DNA of 63,434 nt, filler included, from Basidiobolus ranarum (Eukaryota), in the NCBI GenBank assembly GCA_040143965.1. It is 27 parts of 27 records of this genome, joined end to end, with 100 filler letters (N's around TTAATTAATTAA, not from the genome) between each part and the next. Parts side by side here need not be neighbours in the genome. Positions count along the whole stretch, not along the records: positions 54,156 to 56,400 come from JASJQH010010462.1; 26 more parts are not named here. The stretch is one strand, 5' to 3'. Under the pieces are notes generated by a model, which saw only the letters and a program-made list of their open reading frames with translations, had not been told where the DNA came from and ran no database searches. Shown here piece after piece: positions 9,212-56,500 of this stretch. How positions within the stretch are numbered: the stretch's first letter is position 1; every line of letters starts with the position of its first letter. The translations under genes and the position numbers were made by a program.

Positions 9212-9442
9212 TTCCAGAGCAATCATGGATAGCCTTAGAATCGGCCCTGAATTCAAGTAAATTGAGTACCCATTGACAAAATCATTGGTCTTTAATATTT
9301 AGCGATTATGAGTGGCAAGTCTTAGTAAATGGAATTTCTCATNNNNNNNNNNNNNNNNNNNNNNNNNNNNNNNNNNNNNNNNNNNNTTAATTAATTAANN
9401 NNNNNNNNNNNNNNNNNNNNNNNNNNNNNNNNNNNNNNNNNN

Positions 9443-11702
9443 GACTTCACTCTCATCACTTGTACCGACCTGGATAACAACTTGGTAGCGATATTGAGTG
9501 AGTTCATTGATGCTGCTACCAGTCTTCGTCAAGATATTCACCTTGGAGATCTCGGGAATTTCTTCTTTGAGTGCAAAGAAAAAGGCAGGATCAACAAGCA
9601 ATTCCTTCTCACTCAGCATGCTGTCTGCTATACGTTGCTCCAATTCAGCTAATGTGAGGTCATTGTGAACCTTATGCAACTCCATGGCCGAATGGAAGTG
9701 CTCCAATAAGACAAGACTACGAATATCACCGAGGAAGATATGACCTTCTGGTCGTAAGAGTTTGACAGCTTTCACAACTACCGCCTTGAGATAGTCAATG
9801 TTGGGGAAGTACTGAGCTACCGAGTTACATATCACAGTGTCAAAGCCTCCTTCTTCCATGCCATCCAGTTGATCTCCACCTCGCCTCTCTAGTCTGACCT
9901 TATCACGAAGAGAGTATGTATCGAGGTACTTGTTGACATAGGATAAAGCAGCGGTGGATACATCAGTGCCAACATAGTGATCACAGTGAGGGGCAATTTC
10001 GAAGAGCAGCATGCCAGTTCCACAACCAATTTCAAGAATATCATTACCTCCAAGTTGTCTAATTCTGGAAATTGTATCGTTTAACCATTCTCTCATCTCA
10101 TCACCGGGGATGTCTTCACCAGTCAGTGTGCATTTCCAGCCAGTGATATTGAACGACGGCTCAGCTAAGTCTTCATCCATGTCGTCATATACATGTTGGT
10201 CAAATACAGCGCCCCATTCATCCACTTGTTGAGCATTCATTCCAGATGTTGGGTTGGAATCGACAACGACATAGGCGACCAGTTGTTTCTCACCAGATGG
10301 ATCATCACGAGCAATCACAACACACTCCTTGATTGAATCTTGTTGCAAGAGAGTGTTTTCTACTTCACCCAATTCGATTCGGTAACCTCGAATTTTCACC
10401 TGATGATCCATGCGCCCAACAAATTCAATATTACCATCACTTTTAATACGTCCCAGATCTCCAGTGCGATATAATATCTCCCCATCACACTCAGCATTTG
10501 GATTAACCACGAACTTCTGAGCAGTTAGTTCTGGTTGATTTAGATAGCCTCTAGCAAGGCCATCACCAGCGACACAAATCTCACCCACGAATCCGACTGG
10601 GACTGGATTGAGGTTATTGTCAAGAATATAAGCTCTGCGATTGGATAGCGGTTGTCCAATAGGAATATTGTTTGAAATTTCGTTAATCTCGTACCAAGTG
10701 GAGAAGGTGGTGTTCTCGGTAGGGCCGTATACATTTAATAATCTGGGTCGGTTTGATATGGCGAGGAATTTGTGGACAAATCGAGGGTCTATTGCTTCAC
10801 CACCAACAAGAACATGCTTGACATGGTGGAATACAGAAGGCGCATCTTCGACAGCACGATTGAACAACGCTGCAGTCAAGAATGTTATTGTGACTGATTG
10901 GTTGATCATATTTCTTGAAAGAGCAGCCAAATCAATAACGTCAGAGTGACTGATACACACTATAGTGGCCCCATTTAAAAGTGCTCCCCATATCTCAAAA
11001 GTGGAAGCATCAAAGGAGGAACTTGCAATGTGGGCGATCTTGTCATTATTTTGAATGCCAATATACTTTGTATCCTTAACCAAACTAACGATGGATTGGT
11101 GTTGTACTTGAACACCTTTAGGAGCTCCAGTGGAGCCCGATGTATACATAATATACGCAAGATTAGTTGGTAAATGACAGACTTGTGTAGAAACATGTAA
11201 CGAACTCATAATATTGGATATCTCATCATCCAAGCATATAATTCGGTGATGACTTTTCGGTATCATTTCTATGGTTGATTTCTCACAGATTACGAGTGAA
11301 GTTTGAGTATCTTCAAGGATGAATTGTATTCTATCAGGTGGAAATTGTGTGTCCAACGGTACATATGCACCACCTGACTTCAGTATTGCAAGAAGAGCTA
11401 CAATCAAGAGCGGAGAGCGTTCCATGTAAACTGCGACTGAAGACTCAAGTTTCACTCCCAGACTAACGAGATAAGATGCAAGTTTGTTGGTCATATGATG
11501 GAGCTGAATGTATGTGAGGGATTCATCGTTATGTACCACGGCTGTAGCATTTGGCGCGTATTTTACCTGCTCATCAAATAGCTGTACGATCGATTTCTCT
11601 CGAGGGTATTGAGTTTCCGTCTTATTCCAATTCAGTAGTAAGTTCTCTCGCTCCTGATTCTCTAAGAGATTGATCTCTCTTAGAAGTTGAGAAGGAAATG
11701 TG
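9443..11702 (-). CDS. Non-ribosomal peptide synthetase internal fragment: adenylation domain interrupted by a SAM-dependent (N-)methyltransferase
   Basis: Frame is open across the whole contig with no introns. A-domain cores LAYIMYTSGSTGAPKG, SFDASTFE, NVYGPTE, GEICVAGDGLARGY, YRTGDL, GRMDHQVKIRGYRIELGEVE, then MT motifs ILEIGCGTGMLL, NSVAQYFP, FLGDIRS, NELTQYRY. Confidence 0.97.
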
Positions 11703-11802
11703 NNNNNNNNNNNNNNNNNNNNNNNNNNNNNNNNNNNNNNNNNNNNTTAATTAATTAANNNNNNNNNNNNNNNNNNNNNNNNNNNNNNNNNNNNNNNNNN
11801 NN

Positions 11803-12710
11803 TTGCCATTGCCATCCCCATCCCCATTACCACCCTTTCCGGCATCGTAAGCGCCAGCTCCATCACCGCCATTACCATTTCCATTGTCCCCGCCGTTTCC
11901 AGCTCCGCCATTGCCATCTCCATCACCATTTCCACCCTTTCCGGCATCGTAAGTACCTGATCCATTATCGCCATTACTGTTACCGTTATCACCACCATTG
12001 CGATCTCCGTTACCGTTTCCGCCTTTTCCAGTATCATAGGCACTAGCTCCATTACCGCCATTACCGTTGCCGTTATCACCACTGTTTCCAGCACCACCAT
12101 CGCCATCTCCATTACCATTTCCACCTTTTCCAGCATCATAGGCACCAGCACCCTTACCACCGTTCCCAGCTTCGCCGTGGCCATTGCCGTCTCCGTCTCC
12201 GTTACCGTTTCCACTCTTTCTGGCATCATAAGCACCAGCTCCATTACCACCGTCACCGTTATCATCACCATTTCCAGCACCACCATTGCCATCTCCGTTA
12301 CCATTTCTACCTTTTCCAGTATCATAGGCACCAGCTCCATTACCGCCATTACCGTTGCCGTTATCACCACTGTTTCCTGCACCACCATTGCCATCTCCAT
12401 CTCCATTACCATTTCCACCCTTTCCGGCATCATAAGCACCAGCTCCATTACTGCCATTACCATTTCCATTGTCACCACCGCTTCCAGCTCCGCCATTACC
12501 ATTACCATCTCCATTACTATCTCCACTACCACCCCTTCCGGCATCATAAGTACCAGCTTCATTACCATTGCCGTTATTACCGCCGTTAAAGAGGTCTTTA
12601 ACGTCATAGGCTCCATTGTCTCTTTCTTGCAACCTAGGGTTTAGTGCAGCTGCGTTAATGGCAGCAAGTCCAGAAAGAAGACATAATAACTTGAGGGCGG
12701 AAAATTTCAT
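11803..12710 (-). CDS. Secreted Gly/Asn/Asp-rich tandem-repeat protein, 3'-truncated
   Basis: Signal peptide MKFSALKLLCLLSGLAAINA, then at least 8 repeats of about 30 aa, consensus AGAYDAGKGGNGNGDGNGGAGNGGDNGNGNGGNG. Confidence 0.88.
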
Positions 12711-14161
12711 TGTCAAGTGTGTAGAAGTTGTTGATAAATAAAGTTGTTTCTATTGAATCTAAGTGAGATATTTTAGTAATATTCCTTATTGCGTTGTAGT
12801 TGTCTTTTATAGTACTGTAACCTACATGTTTGTTTGCCCCTTCTACTCCTTGATGCCCATTTTATTTCTCCTATTCATTGATGCGTATGTGTGGGGCAAG
12901 ATTCAAATCGGAGCAGTTATTTTCTTCTCACCCCGCACTTTTATCTATCGAGTTTTAATTGTGTTTCTTGACGGAAAATCCCCTATTGATATATCTTCAG
13001 TACGCATAGAGGCTTCCAGTGTACTGTAGCGTATTCGTCTATTGTAAGCAGGGATCTTAGTCTATAAATTTAACTTAGCACCAATGTAGCAAATGCATTC
13101 CAGATAATTCAGAAACTACTGATGATTGTAAATTAGTATTTTATCAACAATACTCCACTACAAGATCGCACAAACAATCTGGTATTCAGTAGAACTTAGT
13201 CTAAGTTTTGATTGGATCTTGTGTATGATTTTGTACATACTTGTCTCCTCCAAAGAAACTGGCAGTACTCTATTAATGATATAATGATTATCAAATTTTG
13301 TCATCTATTGGGATTGAATTCAGGAGGGATGAAAAGCACCTGGTGGTGTAAAATTCATTTAGCTTATATCGTAATCTAAATAAAGTGACAGTTAGGATAA
13401 CAATATATCAATATATGATTACCAATGTATTCAAGTACTGAGGATGTAAATATAGTGTTCAGGGTAGAAGGTGGTAAACAGAAGGGAAGGAAAGCAGGGT
13501 ACATCTTATACACAATCAAACAGAAAGCTAGAGTAATAAATATCAAGAATGGAGCATTGGATAAAAGGTCCCGATCATCTCTCTGATAGTCTATGGCAAC
13601 GATTTTAAACTTCACTGCTCACATACAATAGGATCATCTTGAACCAATTTCAAGCAGGATAGTGAATTTGAAGAAGGTGAGGTAGGCCACTACTTAATCA
13701 GGGGGTTTCTGTGGAGAAGTGATTTGGAGTACTAAAAGAATTGGTGGTTTTTGTTAAAGTATTTTAGGAGATTGTTGGAATTGATGATGAATTTACGCAT
13801 ATCAGAGTTACCAAGAGTACCACAACCAGCATTGAAGGAGAATTATACTGAAATTGAAAATAGATTGGAAGTAAGAGACACTGAAATAAGTTCACTAACA
13901 CACCTTCAAATTCTGCCATATCGTGACGTAGGAAATTTTAACCTTGAGCGCTGGTAGGGGTGCTTGAATATTGACACATCCGGTAGAATAAGAATGACAG
14001 GCATGACCACAACATAACCAATAGTTTTGATACCGACTGGGTATATATAGAAGTTGGGAAANNNNNNNNNNNNNNNNNNNNNNNNNNNNNNNNNNNNNNN
14101 NNNNNTTAATTAATTAANNNNNNNNNNNNNNNNNNNNNNNNNNNNNNNNNNNNNNNNNNNN

Positions 14162-23589: not shown

Positions 23590-24594
23590 ATGAGACTGGC
23601 CTTTCTCTATCACTTCAGTCAGGCTAAATTGGTAGCTGGATCGAATGGGGATCAATATGTTGACTTCGGCTCTGAGAAACCTAGCTTTTCTTCACCAACA
23701 ATGGTGCTCGACGAAAACTGGTACTACAAACATCGTGAGAAGTTCACCACAAAGTACATTGTTCGCCTGATCATCGGTGCACTCGCATTCCAGATGGCAC
23801 TGACCTTACTAGTCCAAGCATTCACCACGAAGTTCCAGATCACTCCAACCATGGCTCTTGGCAACTGCTTGGTGGGTTGGGAGTTCATTCCTGTCTATCT
23901 CACCTCAGCATTCTATGTGTTTGTCCTCTGTCCCCTCTTCATCACCTGGTTGCGTGGGGTCAATGATGCCTATGGGATCAAGCGTGAACTGATGGCTGAT
24001 TTCACACTGGGAGTGACTGCCTTCATCCTATACATTCTCTTTGCTGCACTTCCATCACTTAAGGACACAATCAAAGTATTCCCTGCTGCACATTGGAGTG
24101 TTGTAGCCCTCATGATCAGCCATATATTCAGTATTGTCCTCCCAACCATTGATGCTCTACGAGGTGGTGCGTCTAGTGGTAGCAAGAACTCCAAAATGTC
24201 CTCGTTTGACTCGATGGTCGAGGACCCACAACAATTTGAGGTATTCAAGAGATTCTCTCTTCGTGATTTTAGTGTGGAGAATGCCCTCTTCTTTGAACGC
24301 ATCCAGAAACTTCGCTACAAGACTCAAGATCTAGTGGGTATGGAAGAACTCCCAACCTGGGTCATTCTTGAGATCAACAGCATATACAACACATTTATCG
24401 CAGTCGATTCTGAGTTTGAGTTGAACCTCGAGGCCTCTACTGTGAGAGAGATTCGTCGGCGTTTTCAGACCAACGCGATCCACTTGGACATCTTTGACAG
24501 ATCATTTAAAGAGATTCGTACACTTATGTTCAGATACACCTACCCCAGATTCATCAAGATGGGCCAAAAAAGTCTTGCTGAAACAATAATATAG
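23590..24594 (+). CDS. Multi-TM (7TM) RGS protein, 3' part
   Basis: Several TM helices, then RGS domain FDSMVEDPQQFEVFKRFSLRDFSVENALFFE...IYNTFIAVDSEFELNL...IFDRSFKEIRTLMFRYTYPRF. No introns. Confidence 0.92.
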   Translation: MRLAFLYHFSQAKLVAGSNGDQYVDFGSEKPSFSSPTMVLDENWYYKHREKFTTKYIVRLIIGALAFQMALTLLVQAFTTKFQITPTMALGNCLVGWEFIPVYLTSAFYVFVLCPLFITWLRGVNDAYGIKRELMADFTLGVTAFILYILFAALPSLKDTIKVFPAAHWSVVALMISHIFSIVLPTIDALRGGASSGSKNSKMSSFDSMVEDPQQFEVFKRFSLRDFSVENALFFERIQKLRYKTQDLVGMEELPTWVILEINSIYNTFIAVDSEFELNLEASTVREIRRRFQTNAIHLDIFDRSFKEIRTLMFRYTYPRFIKMGQKSLAETII

Positions 24595-25451: not shown

Positions 25452-25844
25452 ATGGACAATTGGACAACTTCACAAAAGTTCTACTATCCCGTGACGATTG
25501 GCTGGAACTTCATCCTCATCGCCACCACTTTCCTGTTCATCTCTCAGTATCAGTCACCTGCTATCCGCTACCGAAGCATCACTCTCTCGGTGTTCATGGT
25601 CATTGGAAACTCGTTAGTCACAACACTCTATCTGGGACGAGAGCCAACATACGACAGCTTCCCATGCTTCGTCAATATCTGGGTCTCGTCAATTGGTATG
25701 CCCCTGTGGCTCACCTCAGTGGCTGGTCGATTCATGAGACTGGCCTTTCTCTATCACTTCAGTCAGGCTAAATTGGTAGCTGGATCGAATGGGGATCAAT
25801 ATGTTGACTTCGGCTCTGAGAAACCTAGCTTTTCTTCACCAACA
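25452..25844 (+). CDS. Multi-TM (7TM) RGS protein, 5' part (next tandem copy, or the same gene on a loop)
   Basis: MDNW..TM..PAIRYRS..TM..FPCFVNIW..PLWLTSVAGRFMRLAFLY. 25734-25844 is identical to 23590-23700; joining the parts gives 428 aa. Confidence 0.9.
25734..25844 (+). repeat. 111-bp exact terminal direct repeat of this contig (same as 23590-23700)
   Basis: ATGAGACTGGCC...TCACCAACA at both contig ends. Confidence 0.97.
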
Positions 25845-25944
25845 NNNNNNNNNNNNNNNNNNNNNNNNNNNNNNNNNNNNNNNNNNNNTTAATTAATTAA
25901 NNNNNNNNNNNNNNNNNNNNNNNNNNNNNNNNNNNNNNNNNNNN

Positions 25945-35358: not shown

Positions 35359-35626
35359 AGTTACAAACTAGGGGATGAATTTACTTTGTCAGTTACCCAA
35401 AATTGTAATTCGGCAATACTAAATCGGGTAACTTGGTATGGGCTGGCACGATATCTCCAAAAAAATCATCGTGTCCAATTGTGGTGGGATAGTGCCATAT
35501 TGTTCCTTATAGTGTCCAATCAAGTGTTATAGGACCCAGCCATGGTAATTGACAGATCGCGCCAGATGGTGTACTAGCAGGCTGGATCAAGCGGCACAAT
35601 CTGACCTGGTCCGATGGAACAAGTCT
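35359..35626 (-). mobile_element. Terminus of the DDE_Tnp_4 element (younger, CpG-retaining copy)
   Basis: Ends ..GATGGAACAAGTCT|AT; matches 16297-16419 and 18040-18185. Confidence 0.7.
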
Positions 35627-37610
35627 ATTTACCTGATTTCAACAAAGCTATCCTTGCCTTTCAAAAGAAGCAGAGGAAAGCACTCTGTACACTTTGTCTA
35701 CATCTCAGAGACTTTCACTTGAGATACATAAAATCAGCCAAGAACTTCCAAAATGCTTGTGAAATACTTGAGGGACTACATGAGATTAAAAGTTTGGCTA
35801 ATAGGCTATACCTTAGGCACAATTTTTTAATTAAGATGAATTCTGAAGATTCTATGCTTAATCATATAAATTGGATAAAAACTATGGTAAATCAGCTGTC
35901 ATCTGCTGGAGCAACTGTAAATGAAGATAATGTTATCATGACACTACCTGGGAGCCTGCCAGACAAGTTTGGGAAACTCATAATTGCCTTAGAATCAAGA
36001 TCAGAGCCATTAACAATGGAATATGTTGATGCTAGGCTTTTGAATGAGAAATTAAGGGGATCTAATTCCCAGTAAAACAATGCAGAACAGGCATTTTCTG
36101 GAGCTGTAAAATGTCCAACAGGCTTCAGCAATGGTGCCCCTAATAGGAAATTCATCATCTACTAGTATTACAACAAACCTGGCCATTTAATCAATGATTG
36201 TAGAAAAAGGATTATTGCCAAAAAGCCAAAATTGGAAAAAGCATATCAAGTAAGCTCTGATAGGGACCATCTGTGTGTTTGTGCCCTATCAGTAACCACT
36301 AAAGAAGACTCAGAAATGTGGTATATTGTTTCAGGAGCTTCCCAACATATGTCAAACAAGAAAGCTAGGTTTCCAACTTAAAATCAATCCTAAAAAGGAA
36401 TGTCTAGTTAGGTGATGACTATCTGCAAAATTGAATGATGCACTGTATGTATCAAATATAGCCAACAATCTACTCTCAGTAAGCAAAGCAACAACTCAAG
36501 GACTAGGTTTCATGTTCAGCAAGGCTTGATGCACTATCACTGATTGGAATAATAGCAAATCTGCTACAGGGATCAAAACCCAAAACTTTTACCAGCTAGA
36601 AATTAACAAGTTGCAGTTTGAGCATGCAAAGATGGCAAAAACCAGTGAAACAAGCTGTCAAATATGACATATAAGATTAAGCCACATTGGGGAACAAAAG
36701 CTGACCCAGATGATATATAATCAGCTTGCTTCAGGCTTAACAAAAAACAACCTGGATGACATGAAACTGGTTTGTTCCTGGTTTAGAAATTGAAAATATC
36801 ACCAAGTTGGATCTGTGTGAAGATTGCATGTATGCAAAACATCACAGACAGCCATTTTCAAGCTCTGGAGAGATCAACTGCACTTAGAACCTTGCCCTGA
36901 TTCATTCTGGCCTATGTGGGCCCATGAAAAATATCTCACCAGGTGGGAAAAGGTACTTTATTCCCTTTATTGATGTCAAAAGAGCATATAGTTGGGAATT
37001 CTTTCCCAAATTAACAGCTGAAGCCATTGCTACATTCAATTGCTACCAAGCAATGGTAGAGAAAGAATCAGCTCAAAAATTAAGGATACTAAAGAGAGAT
37101 AATAGTGGAGAATTTAGCTAAAAAGACTTTGCTAGTTTTTGTTCTAAACAAGGAATTGGGCAACATAATGTTGTACCTTATACTCCATAGCAGAATGGAG
37201 TTGTAAAATATGCTAATAGGACCATGGTGGAGATGGTAAGATCAATGTTACATGATCAAAAAATAGATTACCAATATTGAGCTGAAACTGTCTCCACTGC
37301 AGTCTATATCAAAAACAGATGAAAATTGGAACCCACTAATCAAGTGCAAAGATGTGATTTTTGATGAATAAGCAAATTGTTCACCTCAAATCACAGTTCT
37401 TGATCCAGAAAACACAATCTGCACTATTAAAGAAGTGTCTGACAAGAGTTCTGCTGTATCTGAGCCCTATTAAACCAAAAGTACAGTCCCAATTACATCA
37501 GAACATGATTCAGGATCCAGAAGATCATCCACAAGGAGAAATCAGCCAGGAAACTGGTGGAACACTTCCAATGATGATGCATATGCTTATGCAGCATTTG
37601 GTTATAAGCA
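35627..37610 (+). mobile_element. Degenerate Ty1/copia gag-protease-integrase
   Basis: SLANRLYLRHNF..LPGSLPDKFGKLIIALESR (UBN2 gag), degenerate Zn knuckle, WYIVSGASQHM, CEDCMYAK, HSGLCGPM, DNSGEF, QNGVVKYANRTMVEMVRSML. Confidence 0.92.
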
Positions 37611-37710
37611 NNNNNNNNNNNNNNNNNNNNNNNNNNNNNNNNNNNNNNNNNNNNTTAATTAATTAANNNNNNNNNNNNNNNNNNNNNNNNNNNNNNNNNN
37701 NNNNNNNNNN

Positions 37711-39030
37711 TTGGATAGTAGTAATGCGTATGCCTGTTGGAGTAAACTCCATTGATTTGACAAAATCTACAGCAAGATAGTACATTGTGCCTGCAAAAAC
37801 CTCCAATTTTACTGATGGCAGGAGTGTCACCAATACATACTATGTTATTATCTTTAATATAATATTCACCCATCTGAACCTTATGAGATAACCACTCAAA
37901 TTCCACAATCAATGGCTCCAAGAACCTATCAATAAGCACTGGTGACTTAGGTCCAGATATGATGGATAGTATCAAAATATTATGACTCTTATACTGTTCA
38001 GAGGGAGGAAGAATTAAGTTGATTAAAATTATTGGCCAGCAAGGATTTCCAATGGTAGATTTGTCTAGTGAGAAACCAACCAGAGCCAATGCAAATGCAT
38101 GCTCATATGTGTTCTCAAAGAAACTGTGACTTTTCAGATTCTGGTAGTGATATCCATCAAATGTATTAGTGATACCTTCAACTTTACGGTGAGTATTTTG
38201 GTATTGAATCAATGATCTATACTTGGGTGATTTCATCAAAACTTTAAGACCGGGAAACAATGGTATGTACACTAAATATAAACAATATTTACCTGATTCA
38301 GTGATTACCAATTGTGTGCAAACAGTATATGACTTCAGGTTTTTCAGATCACCAGTGAAAGCTAAACAACCATTTAGACATGAAGGCAGTTTAATTTCTG
38401 AAGGATGATAAGTCATAAAATTGACAAGTGCTTTCCACTTCAACCTGGTCTGTGGCAAACAACAGTTGCCAATCAACTGTGGTAAAAGTGTAAGAAAACC
38501 AATTAACGCCTGGTTGCAAAGATTGGATCAAACACTCAACTCCTAAAAATTCATAGCCGCTTTCCTTACTGTAGTGTTATGAGTGGACTAATGCTTGCCA
38601 ATAACAAAAAGTCCAGAACAAAACCATCGTTTTCTTCTTCAACTTCTGATATATTACCATGAGTAGGGGAATAACCAAGGTCAACATCAAGCAGCAAGTA
38701 CTCAAAGTTGTGTGAGCTTCCTGGTTTGACCAAATTTGCATTTCTACCTACATTATTCTGGTCATGTAACTGTGGTACCTTCATGGTATCTTGACTTTTG
38801 GCAGTGTTACCAAAACTTTGTGAAAAAGCATAGCAAGTGGACTAAGTGCACAAAACTACAGTCATTTTTGTGCACTTATTACTGTTGATATTAACCAGGC
38901 TTGGTGCAGCTGGTGGCGTTGTACAGTGACTGTGCTTGTGATTATTTTTTCTATGCAGCCTCTGGCTTTCTTAGCATAAGAGTTTTTGACAATAATAACT
39001 GGCCTTCCTTGAACATTTGTGTTGTGGCAT
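37711..39030 (-). mobile_element. CACTA/CMC transposase 5' half, degenerate
   Basis: ATG at 39030 (MPQHKC..), CLNGCLAF..YTVC, HAFALAL(D/V)GF, CWPIILINLILPPSEQYK..ILSIISGPKSP, GDTPAISK, HNVLSCCRFCQING..HYYYP. Confidence 0.9.
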
Positions 39031-47199: not shown

Positions 47200-49360
47200 A
47201 AGTCACCAGACTTTCAACAATAGAGTTAGACAGACTTCTAGTAAAACTCCTATTCTTCAGATCTACAGCTATAGCAACAGGTTTCACCCAAAAATTATGA
47301 GGTAAATATTGTGCATTTATCATAGATCTTGCCATTTCTATTATAGTCCTGTTAGCTCTTTCAGCAACTTCTTTTGTTGAGATGAATAAGGGGCAGTAGT
47401 TTCCTGCTTAATTCCATGAACTTTGCAAAAGTGCTTAAAAGTGTTTATGTATATTCTACACCAATATCAGTACATATATTCTTGATTTTACTTCCAGTTT
47501 CAGTCTCCACAAGTGTTTTAAAATATCTAAAGATAGAGAGAGCTTCTTCTTTTCTTTCCATAAAGTAGACCCAAGTGTTCCTTATACAATCATCAATAAA
47601 TGTGTGCAAATGTCTTTTTTGGCCTAAAGAGAAATTTTGCATAGGTCCACACAAATCTGATTGAATTAGATCTAATTTTTTGACAGATTTGATTAAGCCA
47701 GAGTTCTTGAATGGTTGGCTGGCTTGTTTTCCATATATACACCCTCACAATTTTCCATTTTGGTTGAGGGGTTGATTTGAATTCCGGAAATTAGCCAATT
47801 TTTGATCATTTTGCTATAATGATCAAATCTAATATGGCCAAATCTCTTATGCCATAATCAAATAGTTTCTTGATTGGAATAACTTATATTTACACATAAG
47901 CATCTTGGATTATATGTAAGTTTGTATACTTTCTGATCCTTTTCTCCCAAAGTTTAATAATTCCTATTTTGATCAGTGATGGTACATCTGGACATATCAA
48001 AATTGAATTTTAGCCCTTCTGAGATGGCCTTGCATACAGATATAAAATTCTTGCCAATATCTGGAACATGTAGTACATCCTTAAAAGTATATGCTTTCTC
48101 TTCAGAAGCTCCAGTTAAATTGACTTGAATTGTTCCCATTCCAACAGCATCCAGTGTGCGGTCATCTCCCATGAAAGCCTTTCTAATTGGGATTTCTTCA
48201 TAATCCACAAACCAATGTTTTTCATTTGTGAAATGCTGCAAAGCTCCAGAATCAATATACCACCTCTCAAAATCCTTGTTGATAGTCATAGATAGAACAG
48301 ATATGAACAAGCGATCTTCAGTTGTAACCACATTTACAGATTCTGTATGTTTTTCTTCTTTTGCAATTCTTTTAAAGCAATCTTTGCTTAAATGGACAGT
48401 TCTTTCACAGTAATCTCAGGATGTCTTAGTTTTCTTCCTAAAGTGCTCTTGACCTCTATAGGAAGGTTTCCCATAGCCTATTAAAGTATTTGCTTCGTTC
48501 TTTTGGTTGGATCCTGATTTGTGTAAATCTTAATCCAGAAGTCTGCCAAATACATAATTTAAGGTCAAATTTTCAGTTCTTGTTTCTAGAGCCATTTCTA
48601 GGCTCTGAAACTTGTGTGGTAGGCTATTCAGGACTGTAACTATGCTATCTTGATCAGTAGTAGGTACACCTATGCATTCCATTTCATCCACTAAAATAGT
48701 GACTGTATTAAATAGTGATTTAATGTCTTCTCCTGGCTTCATCTTTAAGTTAAAGAATTGTTGTCTTACAAACATCTTGTGGGCAGTAGAACTTGTTTGG
48801 TAGGTGTTTTCCAAGGCTTTCCATACCATCTTAGTAGTTTTAGCTCTTGAACATTGAATTAGCAATTTGTCATTGACACTAAGACAAGTTGTGTTACAGG
48901 CCCTTTGTTCTTTGTTAACTTGGAGTAAAATTTTGGTTTCAGAAAGTTTTGCATTGTTTTCTTCTCCTACAACAGTGTCCCAAAGTCCTTTTTCTTGCAG
49001 CAGCATTTTCATATTTGTATTCTAAACTTGAAAATTGGTTCTGTCCAAGTTTTCAGAAGAGGGAAAAGTTTGACAGATTTGAGAAGTAGACATTACACAG
49101 AGTGCAAGCTTGGGGCTCATAACCTGTTAAAGTATTTGGGAGCCTGTTGGAAGTGGTTTGGAGAATTAGAGGAATTAGTGATTTTCACTTATTGATTTAT
49201 TGAGTAGAAAGTTGACATTTATAGTTTTGTCAAGATGTAAGCATACTAGCATGTAGAATATGTTAAGGAAGGTCCCAGGAACATGTGTGCAAAGTTTGGG
49301 GCTTCTAGCACAAGTTTGAAAAATCTATATATCTGAGAACTTCTAAGTTGGTAAAAATAT
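47200..49360 (-). mobile_element. Ty1/copia 5' end: LTR (49125-49360), PBS, gag, protease, integrase (degenerate)
   Basis: MKMLLQEKGLWDTV (gag), WYIDSGALQHF (protease), WHKRFGH/CEG (IN Zn finger), SDLCGPM, TFIDD, DIGVEY, AERANRTIIEMARSM. Confidence 0.94.
49111..49124 (-). promoter_or_regulatory. Primer-binding site, half-tRNAiMet (Drosophila copia/hemivirus) type
   Basis: On the - strand the LTR end ..ACTTTAACA is followed directly by GGTTATGAGCCCCA. Confidence 0.8.
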
Positions 49361-51808: not shown

Positions 51809-54055
51809 TAATGTCTGAGAAATTCTGAGATGTTTTTAGAATGATTTAGAGTAGTAGATTTGCTCAATATATCTGTATTGATCTGCAGGCCTAAAAAATA
51901 CATAAGTTCACCTAAATTGGTCATCTTGAATTGGACTGATAGATCTCTTTTGGTATTCCTGAGAGCTTCATCATTCTTGGTAGCTATAATCAGATCTTCT
52001 ACATATAAGGCAAGTATCACCTTACTGTCCTTATCTGTCTTAAAATAGATCCCAAAATCCTCCATACTCTTTTGGAAATCAAGTGATTCTTAGTATGGGT
52101 GTCTCAGTTTACCAGGACCCGGGTGATTGTTTAAGTCCATGAAGTGATTTTTGTAGCTTTCACATGCCACAGGGTGCTCAAGGTCCATAAAACCATCTGG
52201 CTGATCCATGAATATATCCTCTTCCAAGTCCCCATTCAAAAAAGCAGTTTCAACATCCATTTAATGGATATTGAAGCTGTGTTTTGCTGCTACTGCTAGT
52301 ATGGTTCTGATGTAATTAAACTTTGCTACAGGAGCAAATGCCTGATTGCAGTCCATGCGGTACCTCCAAAAACTCTGAGATAAACCACATCAGGTTTACT
52401 TCCAAACCAAGCTTGATAAGGTGTCATAGCCAATAGAGATCTAGCAGGACATCTATTCCTAATATATACTGCAGTTGGAACCAATTCAGCCCAGAACTGT
52501 GTTGTTAAATCTTGATCATGAAGCATAGATCTTGCCTGGTCCATTATTGATTTGTTTGCACATTCTGCTACTCCATTCTGCTGTGTAGAATATGGCACTG
52601 TAGTCTGCTGCTTTATCCCATGTGTTGAGCAGAAGTTAGAGAAGAGTTTGGAGGTATATTCCCCCATTGTCAGTACAGATAATCTTGATCTTTAGACCTG
52701 TTTCAGTCTCCACCATTGCCTTGAATTTCTTGAATGTATCAAAGCCTTCATCCTTGCTGGCCAGAAAGTACACCCAAGTATATTTTGTCTTATCATCAAT
52801 AAAGGCCATACATAACCTTTATCACCTAAGGATTTTGTCTGCATTGGGCTACCCAGATCTGAGTGCATCAGGCCTCATTTTTGATCAATTTTGCCCATTC
52901 CAGAGCCCACAAACTGCTGTGTGTGTTGCACACCATAAAGGCAACCTTCACATAGCTCCAGCTCTGGTAGAAGTATCAAATTTAGCCCCAAAACCATCTT
53001 ATCTTTGATTACATTTCTAATATTTTTAGCTCCTAGATAACCCAATCTCCTATGCTGGATTTTCCAGTCTGTCTCTTCAGCTGCGGCAGTATTACCTTGT
53101 TAATATATTGGCCTAATATAATAATGTTTATACAAGTTATTTTGCTTAGCTCCAGAAGCCACATATTTCCCTTTTTGATCCCTGATTGTACAGCCATTGT
53201 GATCAAAATTATAGCTATATCCCTCAGATGTAGTTTTACTCATTAATGACAAATTTTTTGCTATCCCAGGCACATATAGCACATTTTTTAAGAGTCAAAT
53301 ACATGTCCCCAGAGATACCCCCAAGATCTACTTCAATTTCTGCCACTCCCAGAGCTTCTAGTAGCCAGTCATCTCCCATATAAACCTTTTTCTTTATGTC
53401 AGTTTTGAGTGTCTTAAACCAGTTTTTTTGCGAAGAGAAATGTTGCAAGGCTCTAGAATCAATATACCACAACCTGCAGTCTTGTTCAGAGGTCACTGAT
53501 AGGGCAGAAATGAATAAAACGTCCTCTTTGGTTGAAACCTGATATGCTTGTTCTGACTTCTCATTTTTGTTGTAATTTTTTGATTTGGAATCTTTTAACT
53601 GGAGTACTGGCTTGTTACAACCATAGCATAAAGCTGGTTTCCTTCTTCTGTAACCTTTATACTTGCCAATGCTATGTTTTTCAGCTCCAAAAAGAGCCAC
53701 TCCCTCAGATTCTTTTTCCAAATTCTTACTTCCGAGGCATTGATCCATTAGCCTTGCCACCACAAACTCCAAAGACACCTTGTCTGATCTTGCTTCCAAA
53801 GCTTTGACCAAGTTCAAATACTGTTCTGGTAGACTACTTAGAAGAGTCATAATGACATCTTCTTCCTGTGGAGGTTCACCAATATTGTCCAGTTATTTTG
53901 CCAAAGATCTCACATATGCAATATGAATAACCATTCTTTCAGACTTTTCCATCTTTATATTGAAGAATTTTCTTCTGACTAAGAGTCTATTAGCAAAACT
54001 CTATGCTTCATAACACTCTTCCAATATGGTTCAAGTTTGATGGGAAGTCTTTGCA
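51809..54055 (-). mobile_element. Degenerate Ty1/copia gag-PR-IN-RT with an internal deletion near 52330
   Basis: [91 protein letters not shown]. Confidence 0.93.
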
Positions 54056-55622
54056 NNNNNNNNNNNNNNNNNNNNNNNNNNNNNNNNNNNNNNNNNNNNT
54101 TAATTAATTAANNNNNNNNNNNNNNNNNNNNNNNNNNNNNNNNNNNNNNNNNNNNCTGCGCGGATATCCAAAATTTTCAAGGCTATAAAATACACATAAT
54201 AAATTGAAATTGTTCCTATAAATACTTTTTCTAACTCAAGTCGGGAATGGATAATATTTGTTTCTCAATTCTTTATAGTTTTAAATGCTCTGTAGCGCTG
54301 TAAGAATTAGATATATTTTCTAATTTGATCAACTGTAAGCAGCAATATGCGATCTTGATCTCTTGAATCTGCATTGAGATTTGGATCACATAGTTATTTT
54401 GGAGGCAATACCTAAAATGGAAGCTTCAATTTTGCACCAAATTATTTTGTATAGAATGCAAATGCAAATGATCCAAACTAAGCCATTTTTAGCCAACTCG
54501 TGTGGTAAAACACCTCTTATGGTAGTCCTTCAACTGGTCTGGTAATATCTATTTGTTCAATACGATTCGAATTTTGAGGCAGATGGGATCGGGATCCAAA
54601 GAACTATAGGCTTCAGTACAAAGAAGTATATACACAAGAACTGATTTGTATCTGAGAACTCCACCATCCAATTGCAACTCGTAAATTATGGAACGAAGCG
54701 AGTGTGACAGGCACGCATAATAAATTTGCTCGTATTAACACTCGAGTATTCCATTTTCCAAACTGGCCAAGTGCTTCTTACTACTGGTCAGCATATTACT
54801 ACCAGTGAATACGTTGCCCCGAGTTAACCAGAGGTTCCCTCCACTGCCTTTATCCAATGAAATTACCACTTAACTTTTGCTGTAACAGATATAGAATGCA
54901 TGAACAGAGGCACGGTGAAGTTTTCACCATTTCCTATAAGATCTTCAGAACCAGTAGTAGTCCATCTTCTCACACACCACTATCAAGTTAACCCCGATAT
55001 ATATTCAATTTATTAGCGATATCAGTAAAAATATCAGAGAGTATATTGTGTAATTATTTTTCCTTTGGAAAGTAGAGCTTACGCAATCGGAATGTATGTT
55101 TAAAATTTGCCGTTATGTGTTTAGATGTTATCATACCCCAAGTGCTTGGGTATTAGACAGCCAAAATCAGCAACTAGGGATGGTTGTCAAACTACACTGT
55201 CTCATTTCAAATCTCCTAGTTCTGGTGCATTAAGTTATAGTTTCTTCTCTAAATGATAATGCAAGCGAAATATATCATTTCAATCCCACTCCACATAATC
55301 TATACTCGATAAAATCATTTCGCGGCCTCTTTTAAACCATTATATGACTTGAAATTGATTGGACTAATCGACCCACAACTAATACCATTGGTTTATTCCC
55401 ACAAATCGCCATCAAGTACCCATCGGATTGAATCTTAATTCAAGTACTCTACCAATAAATGAAACTGAGAACATGCGTACCTATACATCAAAACTAACTA
55501 TGGTAGTTCCACTTATGGTTCTCATGATAAACACATCGATCAGAATGGAAAAAACGGCCTGGGATCTGGAAGTGACTTTGAAGGACTGCTATCAAAGACG
55601 GAGAGAGGAGGTTACAAATTCG

Positions 55623-55630
55623 TATAAATA
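55623..55630 (+). promoter_or_regulatory. Putative TATA box of the CHAP gene
   Basis: TATAAATA about 70 bp upstream of an ATG in AACATGG context. Confidence 0.6.
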
Positions 55631-55697
55631 CGGTGGATAGGAGTTATGTACAAATCAGTACTGGTTTACTATTAGAAGTCTACTATTCGAAATCAAC

Positions 55698-56243
55698 ATG
55701 GCCAAATTTACATTTGCATTATCTTGTGTCTTCCTCGCAGTCACTGCTTTCGTGGCATCTTCAGTAGAGGCTCTACCAACTCACGGCACTGCTGTTGCTC
55801 CTAGCTCGTTGAATCAAACTCATTTGGCTAGTACATCAACATCAAGCAAACTCGCCAATATCAGTGTACTCACCTCGTGCTCTCGCAGCTTCCGCTTCAA
55901 TAATGGCCAGTGCACAGATTGGGCTGATGCTCGTTACTACGAGCTTACCTGCCAGCACACTGAATGGTGGGGTGATGCTCGCACCTGGCCAGACAGTGCC
56001 CGCAATGTCAATGGATGGGTAGTCTCGAGTCAACCTCGTGTTCCCTCCATCATCGTCATTCAACCAGGCTACCAGGGTTGTGGCTCTACTGGCCATGTTG
56101 CCGTTGTTGAGAGTATCAATAATGACGGTAGTGTGTACACTAGCAACTGGAACTACGAGTTCAACGGACAAGGTGGAGTCTATACCACCTCCTATGGTAA
56201 CTTCAACACCGGTAGTGGTGTATCCTTCCTTTGGCATCAATAG
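55698..56243 (+). CDS. Secreted CHAP-domain (Cys/His-dependent) peptidoglycan amidase/peptidase, 181 aa, intronless
   Basis: Signal peptide, Ser/Thr-rich spacer, then GQCTDWA (catalytic Cys), WWGDARTW, PRVPSIIVIQPG, GHVAVVE (catalytic His), GSVYTSNWNY. Confidence 0.93.
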   Translation: MAKFTFALSCVFLAVTAFVASSVEALPTHGTAVAPSSLNQTHLASTSTSSKLANISVLTSCSRSFRFNNGQCTDWADARYYELTCQHTEWWGDARTWPDSARNVNGWVVSSQPRVPSIIVIQPGYQGCGSTGHVAVVESINNDGSVYTSNWNYEFNGQGGVYTTSYGNFNTGSGVSFLWHQ

Positions 56244-56289
56244 ATTGAAGGTCAGGCTACCAAAGATTTTAGAATAGAAAATATATCTG

Positions 56290-56400
56290 CTGCGCGGATA
56301 TCCAAAATTTTCAAGGCTATAAAATACACATAATAAATTGAAATTGTTCCTATAAATACTTTTTCTAACTCAAGTCGGGAATGGATAATATTTGTTTCTC
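56290..56400 (+). repeat. 111-bp exact terminal direct repeat of this contig (same as 54156-54266)
   Basis: CTGCGCGGATATCC...ATTTGTTTCTC at both contig ends. Confidence 0.97.
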
Positions 56401-56500
56401 NNNNNNNNNNNNNNNNNNNNNNNNNNNNNNNNNNNNNNNNNNNNTTAATTAATTAANNNNNNNNNNNNNNNNNNNNNNNNNNNNNNNNNNNNNNNNNNNN

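Follow-up and report, generated by a model that had tools for sequence, protein, structure and literature searches.

A predicted secreted CHAP-domain protein of Basidiobolus ranarum, one copy of an expanded fungal family of probable bacterial origin

Results

The CHAP gene and its contig

The stretch of DNA analysed here, referred to as the window, comprises 63,434 nucleotides (positions 1-63434) of the Basidiobolus ranarum assembly GCA_040143965.1, and the subject of this study is a small intronless gene at 55698..56243 that encodes a protein with a CHAP domain. The window carries 52 runs of N in a strict N44+TTAATTAATTAA+N44 pattern at a spacing of about 2.35 kb (e.g. 56401-56500) and is, therefore, a set of 27 stitched assembly pieces; these are about 2.25 kb each and ordered by length, and being neighbours in the window has no genomic meaning. 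TTAATTAATTAA is a stop-codon linker, and open reading frames (ORFs) that enter X-runs end at piece borders. The CHAP gene lies on one such piece, flanked by 1,542 bp upstream and only 157 bp downstream, and its features are as follows.

54156..56400, no strand: single assembly piece with the CHAP gene, 2,245 bp, delimited by the table of N-runs; the sole DNA physically linked to the gene
54156..55697, plus strand: AT-rich upstream non-coding DNA without a long open frame (GC content about 0.36, a value measured on 2 kb upstream that crosses the linker into the neighbouring piece; stop-to-stop frames of at most 85 amino acids)
55623..55630, plus strand: TATAAATA, a TATA-box-like motif 68 nucleotides before the ATG (motif match only, frequent by chance in AT-rich DNA)
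55698..56243, plus strand: intronless coding sequence of 181 codons and a TAG stop, by translation collinear over 100% with the 179-residue protein P0001
55698..55772, plus strand: signal-peptide-like segment, residues 1-25, from hydrophobicity and a helix at residues 5-19 of the structural model
55773..55877, plus strand: Ser/Thr-rich linker, residues 26-60, with the sequons NQT and NIS, from sequence and predicted disorder
55878..56240, plus strand: CHAP domain, residues 61-181, from the Pfam match and a model block with a predicted local distance difference test (pLDDT) score of 85-98
55911..55913, plus strand: codon of Cys72, the putative nucleophile (GQCT), kept in 54/54 fungal sequences
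56094..56096, plus strand: codon of His133 (GHVAVVE), kept in 53/54 fungal sequences
56145..56153, plus strand: codons of Asn150-Trp151-Asn152, with N150 at the third triad position by alignment (Glu in the structures 2k3a and 5t1q)
56332..56337, plus strand: AATAAA, poly(A)-signal-like, 89 nucleotides past the stop (motif match only)

The ATG at 55698 is the first in the open frame, with an in-frame stop just before it, and lies in the context AACATGG. A first reading of the DNA, referred to here as the original prediction, had described an ORF with an intact CHAP core at this position, and this description holds: the 181-residue product matches the Pfam family CHAP (PF05257, MEROPS C51) over residues 67-150 with an E-value of 9.5e-16 and 58.5 bits against a cutoff of 26 in the hidden Markov model search that had been proposed as a check. 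All features listed at that time are likewise present, namely the CHAP motifs, the TATA-like TATAAATA, the start context, the sequons NQT (residues 39-41) and NIS (54-56), and three extra cysteines at positions 61, 85 and 128, in addition to Cys10 in the signal peptide and the catalytic Cys72. The predicted signal peptide, too, finds support in an N-terminal hydrophobic core with a Kyte-Doolittle mean of 2.74 across 10 residues, followed by VEA|LP, from which the -3/-1 rule would place cleavage after Ala25. The A/LP junction recurs in most Basidiobolus paralogues, and a crude signal test was passed by 42 of 54 fungal sequences.

The long AT-rich flanks without an operon that had been taken as a eukaryotic trait stand as far as the ORF-free, GC-poor 1,542 bp upstream are concerned, but have to be read from a 2.2-kb contig and not from the window. 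A second CHAP copy was not found in the window by tblastn. With a GC content of 0.495, the coding sequence is close to the mean of fungal genes of B. meristosporus as given in PMC7466969 (0.4865). As evidence on origin, base composition was set aside, as the bacterial CHAP regions have a median GC content of 0.556 (0.474-0.622) versus 0.495 here, which does not discriminate. Within the coding sequence there is also a 132-residue antisense ORF (55842-56240, minus strand), which most likely just mirrors the coding frame in this GC-richer region.

Domain, fold and catalytic residues

The protein carries the motifs GQCT (70-73), WGDA (91-94), GHVAVVE (132-138) and SNWNY (149-153), and no Pfam family besides CHAP was detected in it at E<=1. 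In the AlphaFold model, computed from a 26-row alignment, pLDDT values of 85-98 from residue 61 onwards contrast with values below 50 for the disordered linker (residues 22-54), which follows the helix at 5-19. A Foldseek comparison with the PDB gave 20 matches at E<=1e-3, every one a chain from a peptidoglycan hydrolase or a phage lysin and the majority CHAP domains, in agreement with a papain-like alpha+beta fold; among them are Staphylococcus aureus 5t1q (E 3e-7), 9eum, the phi812 hub CHAP, 2k3a, LysGH15, LysK CHAPk, Ly7917 and PcsB. By sequence (phmmer), five PDB entries were matched, 2k3a (E 1.1e-7), 5t1q, 2lrj, 9eum and 9euf, with E-values from 1e-7 to 2e-4. The assignment to an SsaA/PcsB-like form was thus correct for the CHAP domain but not for a full PcsB equivalog, since the respective NCBIfam model, with a cutoff of 450, reaches just 36.9 bits and matches by its CHAP part only. 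Similarly, the staphylococcal models of NCBIfam PRK08581 yield 17-43 bits against cutoffs of 605-839, and the ESM Atlas returned just generic bacterial CHAP clusters with scores of 0.88-0.89.

Cys72 is located at the start of the model helix 72-84 and His133 on the strand 133-140, and each lines up with its counterpart in 2k3a and 5t1q. N150 aligns with the Glu of SEMNY in Staphylococcus saprophyticus 2k3a and of SESN in 5t1q, two positions before the conserved N152, as expected for the polar third residue of a CHAP domain. Conservation was assessed in 54 fungal sequences (the window protein, 41 from Basidiobolus and 12 Entomophthorales-like), in which the residue at position 150 is N (44 sequences), D (7) or H (1), two sequences being truncated, while N152 is found in all 52 that reach this position. 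The conservation of Cys72, His133, N150 and N152 across this set argues for selection on catalysis, and that the gene is fungal and encodes a catalytically intact CHAP enzyme we regard as close to certain. The Cys-His-Asn arrangement proposed in the original prediction is hence supported by Asn150 at the third position, but it is not a fungal change: Asn occupies this position in 197 of 247 bacterial relatives (D in 24/247), and the arrangement is therefore inherited. An origin of Asn150 as a fungal innovation was accordingly rejected, Asn being the ancestral state.

A difference between the fungal and the bacterial proteins is seen directly after Cys-Thr, at position 74, where all Basidiobolus rows (40/40) have Asp and all Entomophthorales-like rows (8/8) have Glu; the bacterial rows have Y, W or F in 232/247 and D in 5/247. 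In addition, C85 and C128 occur together in 14 Basidiobolus rows and are both missing in 25, with one alone in a single row. Because of this co-occurrence, the two residues probably form a stabilising disulfide that was gained in the Basidiobolus subclade of the window protein; C61 would then be left with no obvious partner.

Predicted function

Based on these features, the following course might be proposed. The signal peptide would route the protein through the endoplasmic reticulum and be cut after Ala25, leaving a short, possibly glycosylated Ser/Thr linker ahead of a 120-residue papain-like CHAP domain. In this presumed cysteine amidase or peptidase, Cys72 would attack an amide bond in the stem peptide or cross-bridge of peptidoglycan, with His133 as the base and Asn150 orienting His133, and the enzyme would serve the fungus in competition or nutrition by lysing or digesting bacteria where it lives, be it the herptile gut, dung, litter or insect cadavers. 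We argue this from family membership, the conserved catalytic residues, the expansion of the secreted family and the ecology described in PMC10964425. On these grounds, secretion is very probable, action on bacterial peptidoglycan fairly likely, and a role in killing or digesting the bacteria of gut, dung, litter or insect cadaver is about evenly balanced.

Weighing against a bacteriolytic role, Pfam shows only CHAP in 53/53 fungal paralogues and, hence, no known wall-binding module; many bacteriolytic enzymes carry such a module. The same finding would fit a real secreted enzyme of bacterial origin that acts on an amide substrate other than bacterial walls or scavenges soluble muropeptides without lysis. 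The substrate of such an enzyme could be a gamma-glutamyl or D-amino-acid peptide, for instance one of the many non-ribosomal peptides of Basidiobolus, but also a host or insect protein or a wall protein of the fungus itself. Non-muralytic CHAP amidases exist, and two of them, the E. coli glutathionylspermidine amidase and trypanothione synthetase-amidase, appear at Foldseek ranks 21-43; moreover, the exchange of an aromatic for an acidic residue after Cys-Thr in all fungal copies could indicate an altered substrate pocket, and Basidiobolus is rich in genes for non-ribosomal peptide synthetases (NRPS), which are largely derived from horizontal gene transfer (HGT) according to PMC7466969. However, the closest matches in structure and sequence are all peptidoglycan hydrolases (E about 2e-3 for the glutathionylspermidine amidase versus 3e-7 for 5t1q), the Cys, His, Asn and Asn are the same as in the bacterial relatives, and an expansion of a secreted family in fungi living amid dense bacteria fits bacteriolysis. 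We thus consider a different substrate unlikely, and lysis or digestion of bacteria is kept as the preferred function.

The Basidiobolus family and its spread in fungi

A word-indexed protein search retrieved 73 relatives among 127 candidates, none of them an identical protein in the database searched, which indicates that the window stems from a Basidiobolus genome other than those represented there. The top 40 matches all carry the name Basidiobolus, half of them (20) belonging to B. meristosporus CBS 931.73 and the other 20 to B. ranarum, with identities from 80% down to about 49%, and the best matches, Basidiobolus proteins of 80-56% identity, confirm the gene as fungal, as had been predicted. 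The top match, P0001 (K493DRAFT_368928 of B. meristosporus), is 80% identical over its full length and encoded on a contig of 160,813 bp. An index-free search that covered 1.84 billion cluster representatives gave 956 matches at E<=1e-3 and 12 at E<=1e-30, the latter being 11 known Basidiobolus proteins and P0074, which falls inside the Basidiobolus clade. A search with a protein of the sister group described below identified P0101, P0156 and P0211-P0214 as proteins of Entomophthora muscae. Among the named matches, Basidiobolus and E. muscae are the only fungi.

The family has been catalogued before. According to supplement mmc6 of PMC9391592, a zygomycete secretome study (Chang et al. 2022) with 132 genomes, the orthogroup OG0000093 (PF05257 CHAP, small secreted proteins) ranks first among the orthogroups indicative of Entomophthoromycotina (A 0.99, B 0.75, IndVal 0.86), and mmc7 lists a second CHAP orthogroup with A 1 and B 0.5. 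The main text of that study states that many indicator orthogroups are similar to defence proteins and says nothing more on them; in the supplement, OG0000093 is listed without discussion of origin or function. Copy numbers of OG0000093 given in mmc10 of PMC9391592 are:

B. meristosporus CBS 931.73: 39
B. meristosporus B9252: 3
B. heterosporus B8920: 1
Conidiobolus coronatus: 1
C. incongruus: 7
C. thromboides: 0
E. muscae: 8
Zoophthora radicans: 0

The orthogroup is thus present in 6 of 8 Entomophthoromycotina genomes, consistent with B = 0.75, and the gene in the window, as one of the copies of a lineage-specific family that was already on record, is less singular than first proposed. A vertical spread of homologues, which the original prediction had held to speak against its own proposal, is found within one subphylum but not across fungi. 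The proposed horizontal acquisition is supported by the bacterial nearest relatives and the restricted spread, but not as a single recent capture, the family being common to Basidiobolus, E. muscae and, per the supplement, Conidiobolus.

In the literature, no account was found of the bacterial origin, donor or function of this CHAP family, although Tables S4 and S5 of PMC7466969 may list the genes. That study (Tabima et al. 2020) reports 806 HGT candidates in B. meristosporus, with a median of 0 introns and a composition the same as that of fungal genes; its main text does not contain the terms 'peptidoglycan', 'C51' or 'lysozyme', and its candidate lists in the two tables may include CHAP genes. 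What appears to be novel here, and so far unreported, is the Ktedonobacteria-type origin, the single fungal clade across two orders, the acidic residue next to the nucleophile and the gain of the paired cysteines.

Several paralogues differ in architecture from the window protein. In P0014, P0020, P0024 and P0025, about 60 residues at the N-terminus form a Cys-rich module (C-P-x-G-N-G-L-Y-C-G ... C-x-N-G-C-V ... C) without a Pfam match, followed by an Asn-rich linker and then the CHAP domain; this may be a new binding module. The B. ranarum paralogue P0013 has a C-terminal extension with a hydrophobic tail (…SSGIMTIAAVLTVTLLV) like a glycosylphosphatidylinositol-anchor signal, and some family members may accordingly be surface-bound and not released.

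Bacterial relatives

The first named relatives after the fungal ones are from Thermogemmatispora sp. and Ktedonobacteraceae, and with a query from the E. muscae group from Dictyobacter and Thermosporothrix. These bacterial proteins are about 270-320 residues long, and their CHAP domain is preceded by an N-terminus of about 200 residues that comprises a cytoplasmic part and one transmembrane helix. One genome per prokaryotic species was scanned with patterns drawn from an alignment (A1). There were 170 pattern matches and, among these, 124 relatives, of which the best 80 were kept; they correspond to 70 loci. All 70 of these kept loci belong to Chloroflexota (38-60% identity), a proportion that is biased by the scan patterns, as A1 already contained Ktedonobacteria. 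The Ktedonobacteria lineage is named in the titles of 55 loci (Ktedonobacteraceae, Thermogemmatispora, Dictyobacter, Ktedonobacter, Tengunoibacter, Ktedonosporobacter), the remaining 15 being titled just Chloroflexia or Chloroflexota. A genome scan with patterns from a single protein had 61 pattern matches and no relative. Independently of these patterns, an identity of at least 70% to one of the 70 loci was reached by 23 of the 30 top-ranked representatives outside Basidiobolus in the index-free search, and by 87 of all 169 non-Basidiobolus proteins.

Five Ktedonobacteria genomes have 4-11 CHAP matches each, several in tandem. Examples are six CHAP matches within 7 kb in Ktedonobacteria bacterium brp13 (L071, G002 C1 6649322-6656458) and a further tandem arrangement at G001 C1 515914-517746.

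Phylogeny of the CHAP domains

A FastTree phylogeny was built from 295 unique CHAP domains, obtained from 316 full-length sequences out of 324 proteins after eight partial ones had been dropped and identical rows merged. In this tree, the window protein, 38 named Basidiobolus rows and P0074 form one clade (support 97), whose sister (92) consists of eight proteins with eukaryote-style signal peptides and Q/N/P-rich linkers. An IQ-TREE analysis (LG+C20+F+G4) was carried out on 99 rows and 119 columns thinned from 312 rows, with a bootstrap that was not fully settled (correlation 0.988). The rows comprise 25 from Basidiobolus (below 85% mutual identity), 9 Entomophthorales-like (below 95%), 51 of the bacterial ingroup (below 68%) and 14 of an outgroup, which were drawn from 29 thinned rows representing a second bacterial type. 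Support for the fungal groups in this tree is:

Basidiobolus: 97/95
Entomophthorales-like: 99/97
both fungal groups joined: 99/97, and 287 of 300 sampled bootstrap trees

A single fungal origin is thus well supported by the domain sequences, and Ktedonobacteria-type proteins are the nearest non-fungal relatives in these comparisons. When rooted with the outgroup, the fungi lie within the most recent common ancestor of 23 named Ktedonobacteria rows in 300/300 bootstrap trees. Several results weigh against reading this as descent from within Ktedonobacteria. The fungi are sister to a six-row Dictyobacter clade in only 120/300 bootstrap trees, the approximately unbiased (AU) test keeps a tree in which 49 bacterial ingroup rows stand together without the fungi (p-AU 0.544), and this non-nested tree is 3.29 log-likelihood units better than the tree of the free search. 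With a p-AU of 0.544 on 119 columns, nesting in Ktedonobacteria versus a sister position is therefore not established. The phylogeny suggested in the original prediction as a sign of HGT consequently returned the fungal clade (99/97) and its nesting in the bootstrap trees, but the AU test did not reject a tree without such nesting.

Proposed history

Two features expected after HGT were found, namely a restricted distribution (among the named matches, and with an A of 0.99 for Entomophthoromycotina) and bacterial nearest relatives. Because the closest non-fungal relatives are Ktedonobacteria, a bacterial origin of the CHAP family is highly likely, and the donor was likely a lineage of the type of the Ktedonobacteria, which are filamentous Chloroflexota. 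Somewhat less firmly, we infer a single acquisition before the split of Basidiobolus and Entomophthorales. The CHAP family would have entered once from bacteria before these lineages separated; the captured gene would have lost the bacterial cytoplasmic and transmembrane N-terminus and acquired a eukaryotic signal peptide; and the family would then have been amplified, to dozens of copies in B. meristosporus. Taken as a whole, the explanation of the locus as a gene of Basidiobolus (Entomophthoromycotina, Zoopagomycota) for a secreted CHAP peptidoglycan hydrolase, which goes back to an old bacterium-to-fungus transfer with subsequent expansion and serves the lysis or digestion of bacteria, is in our view reasonably probable. 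It might further be speculated, as a tentative and rather doubtful extension, that one ancient capture of the Ktedonobacteria type in the common ancestor is a rare change that ties Basidiobolus to Entomophthoromycotina, that the gene later received a signal peptide, the acidic residue next to the catalytic Cys and, in one subclade, a new disulfide, and that about 40 secreted copies act as a bacteriolytic arsenal that shapes gut and cadaver bacteria alongside an HGT-derived NRPS chemistry.

A more complex history would involve two routes into the fungi, by two transfers from related Ktedonobacteria-like donors or by one transfer followed by a fungus-to-fungus transfer. The observation that Basidiobolus domains are 57-60% identical to Ktedonobacteria and only about 52% to E. 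muscae counts against a single acquisition; it is compatible with fast evolution in Entomophthorales and also with two transfers from related donors. In addition, the small secreted proteins of Conidiobolus thromboides and Zoophthora radicans do not include the family, deep nodes are weak owing to the shortness of the domain (119 columns), and the placement of Basidiobolus in the fungal tree is termed 'rogue' in PMC9391592. In contrast, the fungal rows form one clade in nearly all of the sampled bootstrap trees, the two orders are reciprocally monophyletic, and an acidic residue at position 74 is shared by all fungal rows, with Asp there in very few bacterial ones. Two routes are thus improbable, and a single old acquisition is retained as the preferred history.

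That the contig is bacterial contamination with an ordinary bacterial CHAP gene, as might be suspected from a domain that is overwhelmingly bacterial or phage-borne and from a contig of just 2.2 kb (2,245 bp) that has no other gene and no linkage to fungal genes in this assembly, is very unlikely given the identity to Basidiobolus proteins, the position inside the Basidiobolus clade and the GC content of the coding sequence: along its whole length, from the signal peptide through the linker to the CHAP domain, the protein has 80% identity with the B. meristosporus protein on the 160,813-bp contig, identity to any bacterial locus does not exceed 60%, the 1.5 kb upstream are ORF-free with a GC content of 0.36 and unlike bacterial coding density, and the cytoplasmic and transmembrane N-terminus of about 200 residues of the bacterial relatives is missing. 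The case for fungal linkage of the gene is made by its near-identity to genes of another Basidiobolus genome, which lie on contigs of about 83-268 kb (most above 100 kb).

A phage as the vector was considered as well and is not supported: 2 of 50,697 INPHARED records match, at no more than 37% identity, and the best of 213 IMG/VR relatives reaches 41%. With no close phage relative and no binding domain found by Pfam, the protein does not fall into the class of phage endolysins. The proteins which served as the outgroup of the tree are lysins (P0079, P0086, P0115, P0231-P0256) with an N-terminal CHAP domain and sometimes SLT, PF18896, C-type lysozyme or M23. These lysins of the P0079 type have a conserved LLDQVH..GFYGIALA..EAEQ.PG motif and a C-terminal membrane helix, and are found on contigs of 12-23 kb repeatedly. 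Their CHAP domain is about 54% identical to the fungal domain, and they match five Ktedonobacteria genomes through the CHAP part only. These lysins may mark an uncharacterised small phage or plasmid group; a phage or mobile-element route through them is unsupported.

Comparison with known systems and significance

The closest counterparts are the Basidiobolus proteins annotated automatically, and in no other way, as 'Peptidase C51 domain-containing' hypothetical proteins (e.g. P0001, OG0000093), which share the order of signal peptide, linker and CHAP domain with the window protein; P0001 also has the same extra cysteines C61, C85 and C128. The membrane-anchored CHAP proteins of Ktedonobacteria (Thermogemmatispora, Dictyobacter, Ktedonobacter; 'surface antigen' at JGI) are 44-60% identical to the window protein in the CHAP domain and have in common with it TSN[YWM]N[WY], a PSIIV(L/I)QPG block and a C-terminal GVSF(V/L)WH. 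They differ in having neither a signal peptide nor the extra cysteines, in the aromatic residue in place of Asp after Cys-Thr, and in their frequent tandem arrangement. The staphylococcal and phage CHAP hydrolases (5t1q, 2k3a/SSP0609, LysK CHAPk, LysGH15, the phi812 hub and PcsB) have the same fold and Cys/His placement (Foldseek probability 1.00, E 3e-7 to 1e-4), but they are no more than 16-29% identical, have Glu and not Asn as the third residue of the triad, and carry SH3b, amidase or coiled-coil modules that are missing here.

Eukaryotes armed with captured bacterial wall hydrolases are known, among them ticks, ladybirds, oomycetes and others. The tick protein Dae2, to which the window protein had been likened, derives from type VI Tae amidases and not from CHAP enzymes. 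For the window protein a descent from Tae is not indicated, as no Pfam family but CHAP was found at E<=1 and Tae3-Tai3 (4hz9) appears only at Foldseek rank 50 (E 0.072). As to the wider description of Dae, a eukaryotic gene of bacterial origin for a secreted wall amidase, the bacterial nearest relatives and a signal-peptide-like N-terminus are observed for the window protein, and secretion and amidase activity are predictions. With tick Dae2, the ladybird cwh (PMC7807722) and the Saprolegnia CHAP proteins (PMC3681718) it would share the concept of a captured, often duplicated bacterial wall hydrolase that was given a signal peptide; in the oomycete Saprolegnia parasitica, 7 secreted CHAP genes are ascribed to HGT (PMC3681718).

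If active, the enzymes would be a natural panel of small single-domain lysins expressed by eukaryotes for enzymology, and might explain how entomophthoralean pathogens keep bacteria off insect cadavers. We know of no prior study of a CHAP family that has grown to dozens of secreted members within one lineage of fungi. The shared acquisition could also become a phylogenetic marker in the dispute over where Basidiobolus belongs, and Ktedonobacteria would join the donors of fungal genes. Active enzymes would also be a protein-level counterpart to the HGT-derived secondary metabolism that, according to PMC10964425 and PMC7466969, has been proposed to let Basidiobolus structure herptile gut microbiomes.

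Other features of the window

The other genes in the window, as identified with Pfam, include SMC, TPR, PIG-L, RGS, an NRPS-like adenylation and methyltransferase fragment, a copia-type gag and a tnp2 transposase. These eukaryotic genes are a sign of the type of genome, and none is linked to the CHAP gene. The NRPS-like fragment (9395-11539, minus strand) has an AMP-binding adenylation domain (274.8 bits) with an embedded methyltransferase and is cut by linkers. An ORF at 11751-12716 (minus strand) has a signal-peptide-like start followed by long Gly/Asn/Asp-rich repeats (GNGNGDGDGNGGAGN...AYDAGKGG) and looks like a repetitive secreted protein without an assigned function; N/G-rich linkers that resemble these repeats are present in several Basidiobolus CHAP paralogues (e.g. 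P0036). The ORFs at 23590-24594 and 25452-25892 (both plus strand) overlap in sequence, the end of the latter (...RFMRLAFLYHFSQAKLVAGSNGDQYVDFGSEKPSFSSPT) being the start of the former, which encodes an RGS domain; the two pieces represent either a single membrane RGS gene on overlapping contigs that were left unmerged, or two alleles. Finally, three copia-type gag fragments and one tnp2-family transposase fragment are located on separate pieces (35614-36075, plus strand; 48530-49012, 53236-53850 and 37655-38476, minus strand), and a richness in transposons may be a cause of the fragmentation of this assembly.

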